DNA of 19,329 nt from a virus (taxonomy: Duplodnaviria > Heunggongvirae > Uroviricota > Caudoviricetes). Positions within the stretch are counted from its first letter, which is position 1. Every line of letters begins with the position of its first letter. The translations under genes and the position numbers were made by a program. Where the stretch lies: the IMG/VR virus record IMGVR_UViG_2802429248_000011, positions 1-19,329 of that record, one strand, 5' to 3'. Shown here piece after piece: positions 3,310 through 17,565 of the stretch. Below the pieces are notes generated by a model that saw nothing but the letters and a program-made list of their open reading frames with translations, ran no database searches and was not told where the DNA came from.

Positions 3310-3590
3310 AATATTGTGGTGCTTTTTGTGAGAGTCATCCACTTACGCACTTTGTTTTGCTATGCCAGCAGTTAGCTTCTGCTGTAAAACTATTCATGCA
3401 GCAAACCTGCACTTCACCACAATGGTTAGCATACTTTTCCTGATTAAGTTATTACCAAATATGCTGGCCATTGTTTCATGTATTGGACCGCCTTACTCTT
3501 TATTAAAGAGATCCAATATTCACCACTCTGTCTGTATCTCCACTCAGGCATCAGCCTTCTTCGTTATCGTATACAGACAAACTATGAATT

Positions 3591-3806
3591 TTAATCATTA
3601 ATGATGACATTTGCTGCTGCAGGACCTTTAGCACCACTCTCTACAGAGAAGGTAACCTTTTGACCTTCAAATAAGGTTCGATAATTATCATTCTGAATCG
3701 CAGAAAAATGCACAAACACATCTTTACTACCATCAACAGGAGAAATAAAGCCGAAACCTTTATCAGCGTTAAACCATTTTACTAAACCAGTCATTTTATT
3801 TGACAT
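3591..3806 (-). CDS. cspB: Cold-shock protein, CspA family (CspB-like)
   Basis: 71 aa [67 protein letters not shown]...; canonical cold-shock-domain RNP motifs; long upstream untranslated region as in csp genes. Confidence 0.9.
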
Positions 3807-4105
3807 TCTACATTCCTTAACTTGAGCCTTTCGGCATAAATGGTTTGTATAACAGAAACGACTTCGTACTTAATTGGAGAGACTCAAAGAAGGAATAAGT
3901 GAATAACACCTGAAATGAGAACTGCTTTAGTAAACTACTTCGTATATCGTCTGTTCTTCAAACCGACGCAATCATTAACGCATAGTTGAACATATGAAGC
4001 AATGTTTATTTTAGACATCCAGCCATCTTCAACCCCATCAAAAAACTATAGCTTTCTTCAGGAACGTGTGTATAGTGCGCCAAGTTATCAGTATTAAGGA
4101 ATTTT

Positions 4106-11803: not shown

Positions 11804-11994
11804 GGACGCACCTCCGCCGTAGTTACGTATTTAACCGGGCTACCTTTCATTGAGATGGTTTCACACATCTCTGCCGCTTTCAGTTCCGCCGTTTTTCTGG
11901 ATTTATAGCGACGGTGCCAGACAGATACATCCGTGCGAACTGATACATCGTTTCTGTATTCCGTAGTGGAGATGATGATTTCGTAACTAATCAT
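11800..11994 (-). CDS. Hypothetical protein (64 aa)
   Basis: GGGAGG Shine-Dalgarno 7 nt before ATG 11994, which overlaps the upstream stop (ATGA); MISYEIIISTTEYRNDVSVRTDVSVWHRRYKSRKTAELKAAEM... Confidence 0.55.
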   Translation of the reverse strand: MISYEIIISTTEYRNDVSVRTDVSVWHRRYKSRKTAELKAAEMCETISMKGSPVKYVTTAEVRP

Positions 11995-12653
11995 GGGCGT
12001 ACCTCCCATTGATTACGGCGAAAAGCAGTGTGATTCAGGCTGGTTTCAGCCTCATGGAATGCTCCAATGCAGCTCTCGTAGTACCGCATTGTGCGTAGAC
12101 TTAACCCAAGCTGAAGCATCATCAGGCCATCAAGGGTGATGTAATAACCACGCAGGGAGTCACCATAGATGTGGTAAGTACCCGGTATGAAGTTGCGGGT
12201 AAAAAATTCGCGCGAGCAGTTCAGATACTCGATTTTGTCGACGATGTTCTGGTGCATGCGCTTAAAGTGGCAGGCAACATGCAGGGAGAAAATAACAGCT
12301 TTGCCGTTGACGACTTCGATTTTGAGGAATGGGGAAGTTGGGACTGTAGCCATGATGGCAGCCTCCTTGATCGGTGAAAAACTTCCACCACCGGAGCTGC
12401 GAAACTCATGGGTGGTGAACTGAACAGGGTTCGCAGTACCGGCGATCAAGGAAACCGGCGAGCCTTTCGGCTCCCCTGCCCAGCCCACCATAATTCTGGC
12501 GTGCGTGAGCGCAGACGATAAAAAAGACGCTGGCGCGTCGTATATCGCCTTGATCAATTCCGGGCTGCGACCCCCGGCACCCGCTTTATAAGGTGCTGGA
12601 ACAGTGTAACGTCCCGAAATTACAGAATCAATATTTTGGCTTGAAACATTCAT
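11991..12653 (-). CDS. Hypothetical protein with Gly/Ser/Pro/Ala-rich N-terminal region and folded C-terminal domain; start codon uncertain (open frame extends to 12887; strong internal Shine-Dalgarno + ATG at 12353)
   Basis: 897-nt open frame. The first in-frame ATG (12653) lacks a Shine-Dalgarno; an internal ATG at 12353 has AAGGAGG 8 nt upstream. C-terminal domain ...YYITLDGLMMLQLGLSLRTMRYYESCIGAF... is not confidently assignable. Confidence 0.5.
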   Translation of the reverse strand: MNVSSQNIDSVISGRYTVPAPYKAGAGGRSPELIKAIYDAPASFLSSALTHARIMVGWAGEPKGSPVSLIAGTANPVQFTTHEFRSSGGGSFSPIKEAAIMATVPTSPFLKIEVVNGKAVIFSLHVACHFKRMHQNIVDKIEYLNCSREFFTRNFIPGTYHIYGDSLRGYYITLDGLMMLQLGLSLRTMRYYESCIGAFHEAETSLNHTAFRRNQWEVRP

Positions 12654-12677
12654 ATGCTTACTGGTATTTTTACTAAC

Positions 12678-12767
12678 GCAAATGTTCTTGGATGTTACTG
12701 GCTTACTTCTTTGTGAGGTTGCCTTTACTAACGTTGAGCGAGCCGGGTCACTACCCGGCTTTTTTTC
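12678..12767 (+). ncRNA. Candidate oop-like antisense small RNA (about 90 nt)
   Basis: Promoter-like TTGAAA (12641-12646), 18-bp spacer, TG-extended -10 TGgTATTTT (12662-12670), and a strong plus-strand terminator ending at 12767. Antisense to the Rha-2 stop and the region upstream of the next gene. Confidence 0.3.
12741..12767 (+). terminator. Intrinsic terminator oriented against the pR-type operon (antisense terminator)
   Basis: Plus strand AGCCGGGT-CACT-ACCCGGCT followed by T7; on the minus strand the hairpin is preceded by A7 and has no U-tract. Confidence 0.6.
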
Positions 12768-13473
12768 ACCGCTGCCAACCAATAACCTGAAATAACCCCA
12801 TTTTCGGGTGATACCAGCGAGTCCCTCGCGGTTCTGCTTCCGCCATAACCTGATGGAAAGCAGCCATAAACGGTTCCACGGCAACAATTGCGCGACGTGA
12901 CAACAATCCGTCCGGCGTCATGAACTCATGGGTGTCTGTAGGAATTTGATAAGCGTTCACCAGATTGCGGCATTTATCATCTGACAAACCGGTTTTCGCT
13001 TTCAGTTGGCGATATCCGGCATAGCCCTCACGAATGTTGCCCTTTTTGATTTGCTCAACTGTTTCGGCAACGTGGCTGACTTTTTCTTCCACCTGAGTGA
13101 TCCGTTTCTGCTGACGAACAGCTTCAAGAGCCATCGCGGCAACCATTTCGATTTCGCTCATTGGCTTACGGATCTGTTCTTCCAGTTCGCGCCAGCGATC
13201 TACTAGGCGGGCTGTGAATTCGGGACAAAGCTGTGCGACGACAATGATGCTGTCGCGCTTACCTTGTTCGCCTTCGAAGATGTAAGCACCTACATTTCGT
13301 TTTAATCCTAAGTTGTTGATTATTTCGAAATTCGCCATTGGCGCACTTCGAATAATCCCCTTATCCATGAGCCTTTCAATGCTGCGCTTAACATCTTTGT
13401 GTTGGCTGCCCACCAACTCTGCGATTTCAAGGCTGGTCATGGATGCTTTGCCGTTAAAAATTGCGGTGTTCAT
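12766..13473 (-). CDS. Rha-family phage regulatory protein (antirepressor-like)
   Basis: 235 aa. N-terminal ...MTSLEIAELVGSQHKDVKRSIERLMDKG... fits the Rha domain pattern; its ATG overlaps the cro-like stop (ATGA). Confidence 0.78.
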   Translation of the reverse strand: MNTAIFNGKASMTSLEIAELVGSQHKDVKRSIERLMDKGIIRSAPMANFEIINNLGLKRNVGAYIFEGEQGKRDSIIVVAQLCPEFTARLVDRWRELEEQIRKPMSEIEMVAAMALEAVRQQKRITQVEEKVSHVAETVEQIKKGNIREGYAGYRQLKAKTGLSDDKCRNLVNAYQIPTDTHEFMTPDGLLSRRAIVAVEPFMAAFHQVMAEAEPRGTRWYHPKMGLFQVIGWQR

Positions 13474-13733
13474 TGTTGGTCTCCTGTGGGCTTGTCATCC
13501 TCTGTGTGCGCTAAGCTTGGATGTGGAAAAAGCTCTGGTAGGTCTGGACGAAATTCATACGCTTGGATCTTTCCGTCGACAGCTGCAACCAATAACGGCA
13601 CAAATTCTGGTGAAATCTTGTTCTTGCAGTTCAACCAATCGCAGACTGTTGACTGGGCCTTTCCGCATCGCTTGGCTAAGGCTTGCTGACTTCCAAGAAT
13701 CTCAATAGCTTTCTCTATGGCTTTATGTTTCAT
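13470..13733 (-). CDS. cro: Cro-like repressor (Cro/YdaS-family HTH)
   Basis: 87 aa from ATG 13733 (GGAG Shine-Dalgarno): MKHKAIEKAIEILGSQQALAKRCGKAQSTVCDWLNCKNKISPEFVPLLVAAVDG.... Divergent from the CI gene. Longest ORF extends to 13784. Confidence 0.8.
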   Translation of the reverse strand: MKHKAIEKAIEILGSQQALAKRCGKAQSTVCDWLNCKNKISPEFVPLLVAAVDGKIQAYEFRPDLPELFPHPSLAHTEDDKPTGDQQ

Positions 13734-13755
13734 AATCGCATCTCCTATTGAACGC

Positions 13756-13784
13756 ATAATAACAACAGGAAAAGCGATATTCAA
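13756..13784 (-). promoter_or_regulatory. pR-type promoter for the cro-like operon
   Basis: On the minus strand, TTGAAT (-35), a 17-bp spacer and TATTAT (-10), about 20 nt upstream of the cro-like Shine-Dalgarno. Confidence 0.5.
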
Positions 13785-13803
13785 CGTTAAACCTAGAACA
13801 TTT

Positions 13804-13817
13804 ATCGGAAAGCCGAT
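13804..13817. promoter_or_regulatory. Palindromic operator candidate in oR (ATCGGAAAGCCGAT); a weaker related site at 13765-13778
   Basis: 14-bp dyad matching two sites beside the pL-type promoter (ATCGATAAACCGAT, ATCGGTAAACCTAT); located between divergent cI and cro start regions. Confidence 0.45.
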
Positions 13818-13852
13818 AGACTAGCCAAGATAGAGAGGGGAGGAAAATCGCA

Positions 13853-14545
13853 ATGACATTTTCAGAACGACTTGATTTAGCTATGCGCAACGCAAAATTT
13901 ACGCAAGGTAGGCTGGCCAAAGAAGTGGGTATGGCTCAGTCCAGTGTCAATCAACTACTTAACAAAGCCAACGGTTCCAGAAAAACAGTCGAAATAGCAA
14001 AAGTTTTGGGCGTTAACCCGGAATGGCTCGCATCGGGTGTTGGCCCAATGGAAATCGTGACCTCTGCAGACTCACACCAAATACGTAACATTTCTGAAGA
14101 TTGGGTTACTGATTCGTATGTCGTGGATGTTTTAGACATCAGATATAGTTGCGGACCTGGCAGTTATAACTCTGATTTTCCTGACATTGTCAGATCTATA
14201 GCGATAGAACCAGGATACGCATCAAGAGTTTTTGGCGGCAGACCAGCATCAGCAATCAAAGCAATAAACGCCCACGGCGACAGTATGAAAGGCACAATAG
14301 ACCCTGAAGACTTGGTATTTGTAGATGTATCAGTTCGCACATTTAATGGTGATGGTATATACGCCTTTACATACTCTGGAACATCGCACATCAAAAGACT
14401 TCAAAAAATCAAAGATACTCTAACGGTGATATCTGACAACCCAGCTTACAAGGATTGGGCTATCGAACCGGAAGACTTTGAACAACTTCACATTGACGGA
14501 AAAGTAATTGTCAGTTGGCCTATGACACTACACCGTTTTGCATAA
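13853..14545 (+). CDS. cI: CI-type prophage repressor (N-terminal HTH, C-terminal LexA-like S24 autopeptidase domain)
   Basis: 230 aa. N-terminal HTH (..QGRLAKEVGMAQSSVNQLL..) and C-terminal S24 motifs (..HGDSMKGTIDPEDLVFVD.. and ..IKRLQK..). GGAGG Shine-Dalgarno; divergent from cro. Confidence 0.9.
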   Translation: MTFSERLDLAMRNAKFTQGRLAKEVGMAQSSVNQLLNKANGSRKTVEIAKVLGVNPEWLASGVGPMEIVTSADSHQIRNISEDWVTDSYVVDVLDIRYSCGPGSYNSDFPDIVRSIAIEPGYASRVFGGRPASAIKAINAHGDSMKGTIDPEDLVFVDVSVRTFNGDGIYAFTYSGTSHIKRLQKIKDTLTVISDNPAYKDWAIEPEDFEQLHIDGKVIVSWPMTLHRFA

Positions 14546-14563
14546 GCAAAAATCATTTAACCC

Positions 14564-14589
14564 GCCCACTCTTAAGTGGGCTTTTTTTT
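14564..14589 (+). terminator. Intrinsic terminator after the repressor gene
   Basis: GCCCACT-CTTA-AGTGGGC followed by T8. Confidence 0.75.
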
Positions 14590-14596
14590 GGAAAAA

Positions 14597-14638
14597 ATCG
14601 ATAAACCGATTGACAGGCGAAATCGGTAAACCTATTAT
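14597..14638 (+). promoter_or_regulatory. pL-type early-left promoter with two operator dyads
   Basis: Consensus TTGACA (14610-14615), 17-bp spacer, TATTAT (14633-14638). Dyads ATCGATAAACCGAT (14597-14610) and ATCGGTAAACCTAT (14622-14635) overlap the -35 and the spacer/-10. Confidence 0.6.
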
Positions 14639-14687
14639 TATGGCATAGGTATCGAACTCACCAAAGCAATTATAGAGGATGAGAAAA

Positions 14688-15185
14688 ATGTCATCGTATA
14701 TGGGGTTACCAACAAATCAGCACGATGCTCTTGAGAATATTCAGCTCTTAGTCGGGGCTGGTGCACTACTGTATAGCAGCAATAACCCTGAGTTAATTGA
14801 ACTTGCCAGCTCCATCCTGGCTGTAACTCAAAAATATAGCCTCACAGCGTCGCGTTTATGCAAACAAAATTTAGCTATTAATTCCCAGAATCGGATTAGC
14901 ACTCAACGCGAAGCCTGCGGCTTAACAACCGCCGAACTCGCCAGGCTGCTCGATCTCGATGAAGAAATTATCATCCAGTGGGAGAGCGGAGAGTATGAAC
15001 CAACCATCAGCATGCTTATCCCACTGGCAAATATTCTTGGCTGCGATCCGATGTGGCTGTTAACTGGCGAGGTTACTCCTCCGGAGCAACCAAAAAGTGA
15101 GGAGCAGCAACACCATGACGCATCTCAACAAGTTTGCTCCTTATCTCGCGAAGCTCTTCTACGGAAGAACCAATACCAATGGTGA
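14688..15185 (+). CDS. HTH (XRE-family) protein, first gene of the early-left operon; N-terminal domain of unknown function
   Basis: 165 aa from ATG 14688 (AGAGGA Shine-Dalgarno). XRE-type HTH in residues ~95-150 (..CGLTTAELARLLDLDEEIIIQWESGEYEPTISMLIPLANILGCDPMWLLTG..). Occupies the position of N in lambda but is not N-like. Confidence 0.7.
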   Translation: MSSYMGLPTNQHDALENIQLLVGAGALLYSSNNPELIELASSILAVTQKYSLTASRLCKQNLAINSQNRISTQREACGLTTAELARLLDLDEEIIIQWESGEYEPTISMLIPLANILGCDPMWLLTGEVTPPEQPKSEEQQHHDASQQVCSLSREALLRKNQYQW

Positions 15186-17322: not shown

Positions 17323-17565
17323 ATGTTCGCTTTGATTAATCAGGGGCAACTGTATACCGATAGTGCTGGCTACCCGATAAAAATTATTCGCTGCATAAAC
17401 AACACTGTGTTGTACAGAAGAATGGATGGGCGAACACAGTCGGTAAAAATAAACGATTTTAATGAACTGTTTGAACGAATCGATCACCAGGAATACCGAC
17501 AAATTCTGGCAGAAACAGAGCAGGAAGCTCATCTGAAAAAATTACGGGTCATGAAAAGGAAGTAA
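17323..17565 (+). CDS. Small protein resembling the DUF4222 family common next to xis/int in lambdoid prophages
   Basis: 80 aa from ATG 17323 (AGGAG Shine-Dalgarno): MFALINQGQLYTDSAGYPIKIIRCINNTVLYRRMDGRTQSVKINDFNELFERI...; family assignment from memory. Confidence 0.55.
   Translation: MFALINQGQLYTDSAGYPIKIIRCINNTVLYRRMDGRTQSVKINDFNELFERIDHQEYRQILAETEQEAHLKKLRVMKRK

Follow-up and report, generated by a model that had tools for sequence, protein, structure and literature searches.

The region analysed here is the immunity module of a lambda-like Escherichia coli prophage, contained in a 19,329-bp stretch of DNA referred to below as the window. It comprises the repressor gene cI (13853..14545, plus strand), a divergent cro-like gene (13470..13733, minus strand), oR with pR and a putative pRM, an intrinsic terminator behind cI, and oL with pL. 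The cI and cro genes lie 119 bp apart with pR between them, and pL is found 65 bp past the cI stop codon. Leftward from pR, the operon carries cro, rha, genes for an O-like protein, a DnaC-like protein and DnaB, followed by Q, lysozyme and Rz, while the rightward pL operon opens with a helix-turn-helix (HTH) gene and extends to the excisionase (xis) and integrase (int) genes. The gene layout, the presence of the same motif over the promoters of both oR and oL, and the content of the flanking operons are those of a lambdoid region.

The 230-aa CI protein combines a 434-like HTH N-terminal domain with an S24 autopeptidase C-terminal domain, and a Shine-Dalgarno sequence, GGAGG, precedes its gene at 13839-13843. 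The 434 repressor is the closest solved relative of the N-terminal domain (E 3.6e-4), matches to HTH_3 and HTH_19 fall slightly under the gathering score, and the protein as a whole matches PHROG 4, transcriptional repressor (E 1e-53). Its recognition helix reads AQSSVNQLLN. The initial annotation had described the S24 domain as intact, and this description holds at the level of individual residues: Peptidase_S24 (PF00717) is matched over residues 127-219 with 61.5 bits against a cut-off of 23.3, and Ser144, Lys181 and the Cys100-Gly101 bond are all present. Among solved structures the C-terminal domain is matched best by UmuD, in which Ser60 and Lys97 align with Ser144 (within GDSM) and Lys181 (within IKRLQ, the KxLQ motif), the lysine column being marked by the K97A chain 8gmt_B; both residues are invariant among 13 homologues. 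At the CI scissile site, YSC100-G101PGS is matched by ASAGPGS in relatives of 52% identity; the CI bond is of the Cys-Gly type also found in UmuD, where it is Cys24-Gly25. Unlike CI, UmuD does not act as a repressor and has no domain for binding DNA. Given the integrity of this domain, the SOS/RecA-dependent induction that had been predicted is a reasonable inference.

The Cro-like protein (87 aa), encoded by the first gene of the leftward operon, belongs to the YdaS family (Pfam YdaS_toxin, PF15943; 54.6 bits, cut-off 30) and matches PHROG 35, transcriptional repressor. Its HTH segment is identical to that of CI at 12 of 24 residues (50%), with AQSTVCDWLN in Cro against AQSSVNQLLN in CI. The first gene of the pL operon (14688..15185, plus strand) encodes an HTH_3 protein (Pfam E 1.5e-10) with a DicA-like HTH that matches PHROG 4836, 'CII-like regulator', and PHROG 4739; its start is probably the ATG at 14688 rather than 14679.

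Promoters and operators at oL

The pL promoter (14610..14638, plus strand) consists of TTGACA and TATTAT separated by 17 bp, agrees with the consensus at 11 of 12 positions and is directed rightward to xis and int. Both pL and pR had been called near consensus, and a consensus scan recovered the two promoters where they had been placed. The same scan of the whole window returned four sites, against 3.7 expected by chance from shuffled sequences; since this count is not above chance, the support for pR and pL comes from where and in which orientation they lie and from how relatives conserve them, not from their number. Among 22 oL variants from the E. coli cluster the pL hexamers are conserved, and the 4-5 bases 3' of the -35 are hypervariable.

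Two candidate operators overlap this promoter, 25 bp apart from centre to centre. OL2 (14597..14610), ATCGATAAACCGAT, is an exact match to the dyad pattern and scores 16.2 on the independent matrix described below. It shares its final T with the start of the pL -35, and this CGAT-TGAC fusion is also present in E. coli, Salmonella, Providencia, Yersinia and Plesiomonas relatives. OL1 (14622..14635), ATCGGTAAACCTAT, reaches three bases into the pL -10; it has one pattern mismatch, yet attains the highest matrix score in the window (17.3). The dyad had been said to occur twice at oL, and while the first copy stands, the second departs from the literal pattern in reading CCTAT for CCGAT. In relatives the OL1 position is occupied by a perfect palindrome, ATAGGTAAACCTAT.

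Between cI and oL, a terminator scan identified an intrinsic terminator (14564..14589, plus strand) with a 7-bp G+C-rich stem followed by T8. The predicted RNA fold has an energy of -12.4 kcal/mol (z = -2.2), and the stem is kept in relatives through different sequences.

Promoters and operators at oR

The pR promoter (13756..13784, minus strand) has a -35 of TTGAAT (13784..13779), a 17-bp spacer and a TG-extended -10 of TATTAT (13761..13756), from which the cro start lies 23 bp downstream. In the scan it agrees with the consensus at 9 of 12 positions, with the TG extension in addition. Across 14 distinct oR variants its -35 is invariant and its -10 keeps TAnnnT, and minus-strand promoters equivalent to pR are found in every relative examined. 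A putative pRM (13794..13822, plus strand), with a -35 of TAGAAC (13794-13799), a 17-bp spacer and a -10 of TAGACT (13817-13822), matches 7 of 12 consensus positions, falls under the threshold of the promoter scan and was read directly from the sequence. The same geometry recurs in Salmonella, Providencia, Plesiomonas and Yersinia relatives, where it scores 8-10/12.

The strong dyad that had been reported at oR is confirmed as an exact pattern match at 13804..13817, ATCGGAAAGCCGAT, with a matrix score of 16.2. This site, designated OR3, occupies the spacer of the putative pRM, whose -10 begins on the last T of the dyad. It is kept across genera, and in the 14 oR variants it is invariant while the adjoining bases vary. 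An alternative minus-strand promoter under this dyad (TTGGCT-16/17-GATAAAT, 13828..13800) was considered and rejected: both hexamers vary among sister prophages, and the -10 is without the invariant T. Judged from the sequence, the strong oR dyad thus appears to be at the OR3 position in the pRM spacer, off pR, and pR appears to be covered by the weak site OR1.

OR1 (13765..13778), ACAGGAAAAGCGAT, lies in the pR spacer and abuts the -35. Its earlier description as a weaker copy is borne out: it has 3 mismatches to the dyad pattern, and its independent matrix score of 10.9 ranks sixth of ~19,300 positions. Sister prophages offer a better match at this position, AATAGGTAAATCGATA, with 2 mismatches, and two of them (L003 and L027) carry ATAGGTAAATCGAT. 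Homologous sites with 8-9/10 half-site positions stand in the same place in Salmonella, Providencia, Plesiomonas and Yersinia relatives.

A tentative OR2 (13783..13796), AACGTTAAACCTAG, which the initial annotation did not list, overlaps the pR -35 and the -35 of the putative pRM. It retains 7/10 half-site positions, with a matrix score of 8.0 (rank 13), and the segment is invariant in 12 of the 14 oR variants; it is graded weak because in six sister loci (the L010 group) its right half has A in place of a C. OR2 is 18 bp from OR1 here, as opposed to 19 bp in relatives, whose OR2 dyad retains 8-10/10 positions, and 21 bp from OR3, so that oR sites are spaced 18-21 bp apart overall. Placing OR2 instead at 13779-13792, 25 bp from OR3 in an oL-like phasing, was rejected on account of a sequence unlike the motif; the segment at 13783-13796 resembles the motif and is positionally homologous to the OR2 of relatives.

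A tentative fourth operator, OR0 (13735..13748), ATCGCATCTCCTAT, likewise new to the annotation, lies over the cro Shine-Dalgarno sequence at about +2..+15 of pR. It matches at 9/10 half-site positions, the independent matrix places it ninth in the window with a score of 9.2, and its homologue is a perfect 10/10 dyad in Salmonella (L127) and Providencia (L129), at a constant 30 bp from OR1. Alternatively, OR0 may simply reflect the AGGAG ribosome-binding site. At these matrix scores the numbers expected by chance per 19 kb are 0.9 for OR1, 4 for OR2 and ~2 for OR0, so each of these sites is weak individually.

Statistical support for the dyads

Allowing at most one mismatch, the dyad pattern was found at just three sites on both strands of the window, where 0.37 would be expected, a count that is post hoc in that the pattern was derived from those very sites. 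At two mismatches, 18 matches are spread across the window. An independent position-weight matrix was taken solely from eight sites in Salmonella and Providencia relatives; in it, positions 6-9 are A or T only, and positions 1-4 and 11-14 are nearly fixed. Scored with this matrix, OL1, OL2 and OR3 are ranks 1-3 among all 14-mers of the window, with scores of 16.2-17.3; a random 19-kb sequence would be expected to contain about 0.03-0.05 such 14-mers. Of the 13 best-scoring matches, six fall within the two intergenic regions that flank cI, which together make up 252 bp or 1.3% of the window (binomial P = 8e-9). Matches at 17348, 11554 and 10008 are within coding regions and occur at chance frequency.

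Conservation and covariation with the CI recognition helix

The immunity type was found in 25 of 5426 complete E. coli genomes (~0.5%), as well as in Salmonella and Providencia prophages, and a scan of GTDB representatives added four distant relatives only. Among the isolated phages searched, none has this immunity type, the best CI match being 52% identical. Searches of 50,697 phage records by megablast, and by blastn with the region, gave no match to cI or oR and only a short match at the rha border, and a literature search for the operator sequences likewise found none. Within the E. coli cluster, the 14 oR and 22 oL variants reveal a footprint in which the dyads and promoter hexamers are conserved amid hypervariable neighbours. 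In the cross-genus relatives, CI is only 64-69% identical and the intergenic DNA has otherwise diverged, yet dyads and promoters keep their relative positions.

Half-site and CI recognition helix vary together, and this ties the dyads to CI. The helix AQSS[VI]NQLL goes with ATCGG in 37 loci, which represent 18 distinct oR sequences and 3 genera. AQSSVNKLL and AQSSVWKLT are paired with ATCGC, xQPSVWKL with ATAGC or ATAAC, and SQAAIQKLTS with ACAAC, and the 14-bp format with an A/T-rich centre is common to every helix class. The G-to-C change at half-site position 5 follows Q34K in CI, with the Cro helix QST[VI]CDWL unchanged, and Ser or Pro at CI position 30 is paired with C or A at half-site position 3, all within a sample of few independent lineages. 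If true, Q34/K34 with G5/C5 and S30/P30 with C3/A3 would make up a small recognition code for 434-like repressors. The candidate immunity specificity that had been proposed from this one prophage is thereby supported: across relatives the dyad changes together with the CI recognition helix, as a defined specificity requires, and the immunity type now has a predicted operator sequence and promoter map. These have uses in predicting superinfection immunity groups, in annotating prophage switches and as orthogonal repressor-operator pairs for synthetic biology, and the series ATCGG, ATCGC, ATAGC, ATAAC and ACAAC with its matched helices is a data set for the evolution of 434-type specificity.

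Predicted operation of the switch

The region is very probably a lambdoid immunity (lysis-lysogeny) switch in which CI dimers act on 434-format 14-bp operators and RecA*-stimulated CI self-cleavage is the likeliest means of induction. CI dimers would bind these operators through the AQSSVNQLLN helix, reading the outer ATCGG or ATAGG, with the 4-bp A/T-rich centre probably uncontacted. Bound at OL2 on the -35 and at OL1 on the -10, CI would bracket pL and turn the rightward operon off; OR1 in the pR spacer and the weaker OR2 over the -35 would do the same for the leftward operon, possibly helped by a further site over the cro ribosome-binding site. OR3, the best oR site, is predicted to mediate negative autoregulation of cI from within the pRM spacer, and Cro, with its CI-like helix, probably uses the same sites to switch pRM off. 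Operator spacings are fixed at 25 bp for OL and at 18-19 bp for OR1-OR2. CI binding, with its cooperativity and the relative affinities of the sites, is inferred from these sequence features, as are the transcription starts, binding by Cro and dependence on SOS.

The best oR operator is on pRM and not on pR, which means that either the analogy to lambda fails or a match to the consensus poorly predicts CI affinity. If consensus match does equal affinity, the whole CI family (E. coli, Salmonella, Providencia, Plesiomonas and Yersinia) would have its best operator on pRM and weaker ones on pR, and its switch would run on dominant negative autoregulation with a four-site oR, a generalization that we regard as possible but doubtful. 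If it were true, such a four-site, negatively autoregulated oR would depart from the lambda/434 hierarchy.

The most likely course of induction is that RecA* stimulates CI to cleave itself at Cys100-Gly101 by means of the Ser144/Lys181 dyad. The architecture could also be as described and induction be due mainly to an antirepressor, a Rha/Ant-like protein or an Ash/Rha fusion, that inactivates CI without RecA-dependent autocleavage. The product of rha matches PHROG 63, 'anti-repressor Ant' (E 1e-46), and C4 (85 bits) and isrK (57.6 bits) RNAs are located at 12408-12596 in the pR operon, with the Ash/Rha fusion behind them; C4 is the antisense RNA that controls the antirepressor in P1 and P7. 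However, CI retains all residues required for self-cleavage, and the candidate antirepressor genes sit downstream of pR, so they would be silent in the lysogen and unable to start induction. Relaxed and strict searches of the window found no LexA box, and therefore no LexA-controlled antirepressor is encoded there. An antirepressor as the main route is accordingly judged unlikely, though the Rha/Ant-like protein and the isrK/C4 module may leave room for cleavage-independent induction.

That the dyads are operators of Cro alone, or of the HTH regulator encoded downstream of pL, with CI recognizing something else, is a considerably poorer prospect. The Cro helix is similar enough to that of CI to bind dyad-type sites, the most symmetric oR site is on pRM, where lambda Cro acts first, and the HTH gene is conserved beside cI in E. 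coli, Salmonella and Providencia relatives. Against this, Plesiomonas, Yersinia and Edwardsiella relatives are without the HTH gene and retain the dyads at both oR and oL, the G5-to-C switch follows CI while the Cro helix stays constant, and oR and oL offer CI no other repeated motif. The HTH_3 gene is classed here as a neighbour of the switch. Finally, the notion that dyads and promoter-like hexamers alike arose by chance in A/T-rich intergenic DNA, as palindromes with no regulatory role, is effectively refuted: the promoter scan is at chance level, the dyad pattern came from the sites it counts and its two-mismatch matches are scattered, but the three sites lead the ranking by an independently trained matrix, the best matrix matches cluster around cI, and the dyads are conserved amid hypervariable flanks, hold their positions across genera and covary with the CI helix.

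Comparison with known systems

The switch is of the ordinary lambdoid type and leaves the understanding of lysogeny switches unchanged; its DNA-recognition specificity is previously undescribed. With lambda it shares order and logic, namely cI divergent from cro, the promoters pR, pRM and pL, operators that overlap promoters, and a CI with an S24 C-terminal domain. The flanking operons are alike too, with replication, Q and lysis genes on one side and xis and int on the other. In both systems the pRM hexamers are poor and an operator lies over the -35, the hexamers being TAGATA/TAGATT in lambda and TAGAAC/TAGACT here. In contrast, operators are 17 bp long in lambda and 14 bp here, lambda oL has three sites where two are recognizable here, and oL and oR are 2.4 kb apart in lambda but only ~0.8 kb here. 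In place of N after pL there is the HTH 'CII-like' gene, and in place of cII after cro there is rha. The paradigm of lambda and 434 is an OR1 > OR2 > OR3 hierarchy with positive autoregulation, and the operator strengths predicted from the sequence here would reverse that order.

Common to 434 and the present system are 14-bp operators that are conserved in their outer bases and rich in A/T at the centre, three oR sites 18-21 bp apart, and the shared start of the recognition helix in CI and Cro. As in 434, Gln at the first helix position is paired with A at operator position 1; the 434 structures of Harrison and Ptashne are reportedly the source of such repressor-operator contacts. The half-site is ATCGG or ATAGG instead of ACAA, and the operators do not read ACAA-N6-TTGT; the two systems are therefore predicted to be heteroimmune. 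CI here is only distantly similar to the 434 repressor, Cro is of the YdaS family, the scissile bond is Cys-Gly, not Ala-Gly, and symmetry is highest at the OR3 position, not at OR1. A-tracts in the operator centre are read indirectly by the 434 and P22 repressors, with affinity raised (PMC3317979).

Cro here is in the same Pfam family as YdaS of the Rac prophage (RacR-YdaS) and of CP-933P, whose repressors are not known to be S24 autocleaving CI proteins. In these two prophages YdaS-type proteins are the Cro analogue (PMC8630535, PMC5700373) and YdaT is the CII analogue (PMC9986795); ydaT is used there, whereas none follows cro here.

Among isolated phages, the closest CI proteins are those of the Klebsiella phages Mulock and ST13-OXA48phi12.5, together with Enterobacter and Klebsiella prophages, at 52% identity overall and 77% in the N-terminal domain. 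The Mulock-related loci (L031-L034) share the oR grammar seen here, with three dyads of 14 bp; their operators were read in IMG/VR relatives, as opposed to the Mulock record. Their helix is AQSSVNKLL and their half-site ATCGC, so that the specificity at position 5 differs from that described here, and the scissile bond of their CI is Ala-Gly.

Genes of the immunity region

The region is the arm of a lambdoid prophage in E. coli. At least 80% of it is present in 25 of 5426 complete E. coli genomes, and the 24 listed range from 91.6 to 99.4% identity. The ORF list and sequence place a CI-type repressor ORF of 230 residues (13853-14545, plus strand) divergent from a cro-like ORF of 87 residues (13470-13733, minus strand), with 119 bp between the two. 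Leftward beyond cro lie rha, an ash-family ORF, O-like, DnaC-like, DnaB, DUF968, Q, lysozyme and Rz genes; rightward from pL lie an HTH gene, small ORFs, excisionase and integrase.

The S24 autopeptidase domain of CI, described as intact in the initial annotation, was recovered well above the Pfam cut-off (Peptidase_S24, 61.5 bits versus 23.3), and its Ser144 (GDSM) and Lys181 (IKRLQ) align to UmuD Ser60 and Lys97. PDB sequence searches matched this C-terminal domain to UmuD and the N-terminal domain, where the Pfam HTH_3 and HTH_19 matches were sub-threshold, to the 434 repressor (E = 3.6e-4). Among 13 aligned homologues, YSC100-G101PGS is column-matched to ASAGPGS of 52%-identical relatives, and the scissile bond is therefore Cys-Gly, the same type as in UmuD. 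The cro-like product is a YdaS-family HTH protein (Pfam, 54.6 bits versus 30), a family whose members act as Cro analogues in the Rac and CP-933P prophages (PMC5700373, PMC8630535). Its helix-turn-helix is identical to that of CI at 12 of 24 residues (AQSTVCDWLN versus AQSSVNQLLN).

Promoters and operator dyads

A consensus scan returned both near-consensus promoters at the sites initially named: pR (TTGAAT-17-TATTAT, 13784..13756, minus strand; 9 of 12 consensus positions and a TG extension) and pL (TTGACA-17-TATTAT, 14610-14638, plus strand; 11 of 12). As the scan overall performed at chance level (4 sites versus 3.7 in shuffles), the two owe their credibility to position and conservation rather than to the scan count. 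A terminator scan found an intrinsic terminator at 14564-14581 (fold -12.4 kcal/mol) followed by a T-run.

The dyad pattern ATCGNNAANCCGAT had been reported once in oR and twice at oL. The oR copy (OR3, 13804-13817) and one oL copy (OL2, 14597-14610) are exact, whereas the other oL copy (OL1, 14622-14635) is one mismatch off; these are the only matches in the window at one mismatch or fewer (0.37 expected), and allowing two mismatches gives 18 scattered matches (5.4 expected). The two oL sites form a 17-nt direct repeat with a spacing of 25 bp. Because the pattern was derived from the very sites then counted, an independent symmetric position-weight matrix was built from eight sites in the Salmonella (L127) and Providencia (L129) relatives only, and the window was scanned with it. 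OL1 (17.3), OL2 (16.2) and OR3 (16.2) were the top three of ~19,300 14-mers, at scores expected ~0.03-0.05 times per random 19-kb sequence. The proposed weaker oR copy (OR1, 13765-13778), three mismatches from the pattern, ranked sixth (10.9), an operator-like dyad over the cro Shine-Dalgarno (OR0, ATCGCATCTCCTAT, 13735-13748) ninth (9.2) and a tentative OR2 (13783-13796) thirteenth (8.0). Six of these 13 best matches fall in the intergenic regions flanking cI, 252 bp in total (P = 8e-9).

Conservation of the operators

Together with the window, 28 loci with near-identical CI (4 E. coli genomes and 24 IMG/VR or metagenome contigs) yielded 14 distinct oR and 22 distinct oL sequences. OL2, the pL -35, OL1 and the pL -10 are nearly invariant among the oL variants, and the five bases between the pL -35 and OL1 are highly varied (GGCGA, GATAA, TGCAA, CCACA, ACATG and others), a pattern that clearly marks selection acting on the sites. 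The left half of OL1 reads ATCGG or ATAGG, the latter form being the perfect palindrome ATAGGTAAACCTAT. In the oR variants, 13804-13818 is invariant and the bases on either side vary. The OR1 counterparts in two related prophage loci (AATAGGTAAATCGATA in L003, AATAGGTAATTCGATA in L027) are much nearer consensus than the window copy, marking the latter as a genuine site that has decayed. The pL leader (14639-14678, CATAGGTATCGAACTCACCAAAGCAATTATAGAGG) is also nearly invariant in this cluster and can still be recognised in the 83-89% relatives; it holds the adjacent half-site-like words ATAGGT and ATCGA, which form no dyad.

A homologous-protein search gave CI relatives of 83-89% identity in E. 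coli and 63-69% in Salmonella, Providencia, Plesiomonas, Yersinia and Edwardsiella. Their intergenic DNA has diverged (mean column identity 66-73%, with the conserved columns clustered at the motifs), yet the layout is the same in each: the OR1 dyad lies within the pR spacer and abuts the -35, OR2 follows 18-19 bp from OR1, the OR3 dyad fills the spacer of a plus-strand promoter (pRM) whose -10 starts on the dyad's final T, the last T of OL2 is the first T of TTGAC, and OL1 overlaps TATTAT. Homology with these relatives places the window pRM at TAGAAC-17-TAGACT (-35 13794-13799, -10 13817-13822, plus strand), predicted to be a weak promoter with its -35 overlapping OR2, much like the pRM of lambda; the Plesiomonas counterpart is TTGATT-17-TATAAT. 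In the Salmonella and Providencia relatives the OR0 counterpart forms a perfect dyad at a constant 30 bp from OR1; the window copy could be either a fourth operator in oR or a chance overlap with AGGAG.

Covariation of repressor and operator

When 130 loci were grouped on their CI recognition helices and each class was represented by the dyad half-site found most often upstream of cI, the half-site changed with the helix, in support of the proposal that the dyads define a candidate immunity specificity. Helix AQSS[VI]NQLL goes with ATCGG (37 loci, 18 distinct oR, three genera), AQSSVNKLL and AQSSVWKLT with ATCGC (8 loci), xQPSVWKL with ATAGC or ATAAC, SQPAIQKMTS with ATAAC (50 loci) and SQAAIQKLTS with the 434-like core ACAAC. 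The change from G to C at half-site position 5 tracks CI Q34K, with the Cro helix constant (QST[VI]CDWL), and that from C to A at position 3 tracks S30P. In 434 co-crystal structures, Gln28 reads the outermost and Gln33 the inner contacted base pair. CI Q29 and Q34 align opposite these residues, and the direction of covariation is therefore as the 434 contact model predicts. In the matrix from relatives the operator centre is A/T only, matching the 434 and P22 repressors, for which central operator bases are read indirectly and A-tracts there raise affinity (PMC3317979).

A model of the switch

The best-supported model is a switch of the 434/lambda type. CI dimers at OL2 and OL1 would occlude pL; CI bound at OR1, together with OR2 and possibly OR0, would occlude pR; and CI or Cro at OR3 would occlude pRM, Cro probably sharing the same sites. 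Induction would proceed by RecA*-stimulated cleavage of CI at Cys100-Gly101. Induction driven by an antirepressor is possible but unsupported, and the candidate antirepressor genes sit downstream of pR. A search for a LexA box across the window found none. It is unlikely that the dyads are read by Cro alone or by the downstream HTH protein, and the latter is excluded as their reader since they are kept in relatives that lack its gene. Chance is excluded as the origin of the dyads and promoters.

OR3, which sits on the promoter of the repressor gene itself, is the most symmetric operator in all lineages, and pR lies under weaker sites. Should the match to consensus reflect CI affinity, the switch would lean more on negative autoregulation and cooperativity than that of lambda; should it reflect Cro affinity, the arrangement would be conventional. 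The initial description and interpretation were essentially right, and to them the present analysis adds a tentative OR2, a putative pRM with the strong oR dyad upon it, a possible fourth site, the predicted Cys-Gly site and a candidate helix-operator code. The system is an uncharacterised immunity specificity within the known 434-like CI/lambdoid switch family, not a new kind. In the collection of isolated phages searched, this specificity was absent and no CI was more than 52% identical; the operator sequences did not occur in the literature searched.

Neighbouring features

The first gene of the pL operon (14688-15185, plus strand) encodes an HTH_3 protein with a DicA-like HTH (PHROG 4836, 'CII-like regulator') and accompanies cI in the E. 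coli, Salmonella and Providencia relatives; in lambda, N occupies this place. Shine-Dalgarno spacing favours ATG 14688 as its probable start over the first ATG, 14679. The window has no cII-like gene after cro.

Within the pR operon, between rha and the body of the ash-family ORF, Rfam matched in tandem the isrK Hfq-binding RNA (RF01394, 57.6 bits versus 50) and the C4 antisense RNA (RF01695, 85 bits versus a gathering score of 45), the pair occupying 12408-12495 and 12520-12596 (minus strand). In P1 and P7 the antirepressor is under C4 control, and the pair may add a further, RNA-based level of control over immunity or the antirepressor. The Phage_ASH Pfam match (residues 94-185 of ORF 11991-12887, minus strand; about 12335-12608) lies on the same DNA and strand; either this DNA encodes a protein as well as the RNAs, or the 'Ash protein' frame is a translated RNA gene whose CDS start is annotated too far upstream.

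A cspA thermoregulator 5'UTR (RF01766, 157.9 bits, 3526-3967, minus strand) lies upstream of a 71-aa ORF (3591-3806), a cold-shock-protein moron between Q and the lysis genes. The cro-rha junction is a moron hot spot: cro and rha overlap by 4 bp in the window, and three sister prophages carry differing small plus-strand genes between them (L002 1685-1936, L003 1690-1983, L004 1171-1416), encoding a bssS-family protein or hypothetical proteins. IMGVR_UViG_2681813321_000026 (24,073 bp; loci L016 and L019) carries two cI copies identical to that of the window, ~10 kb apart; tandem prophages or an assembly artefact could explain the duplication.
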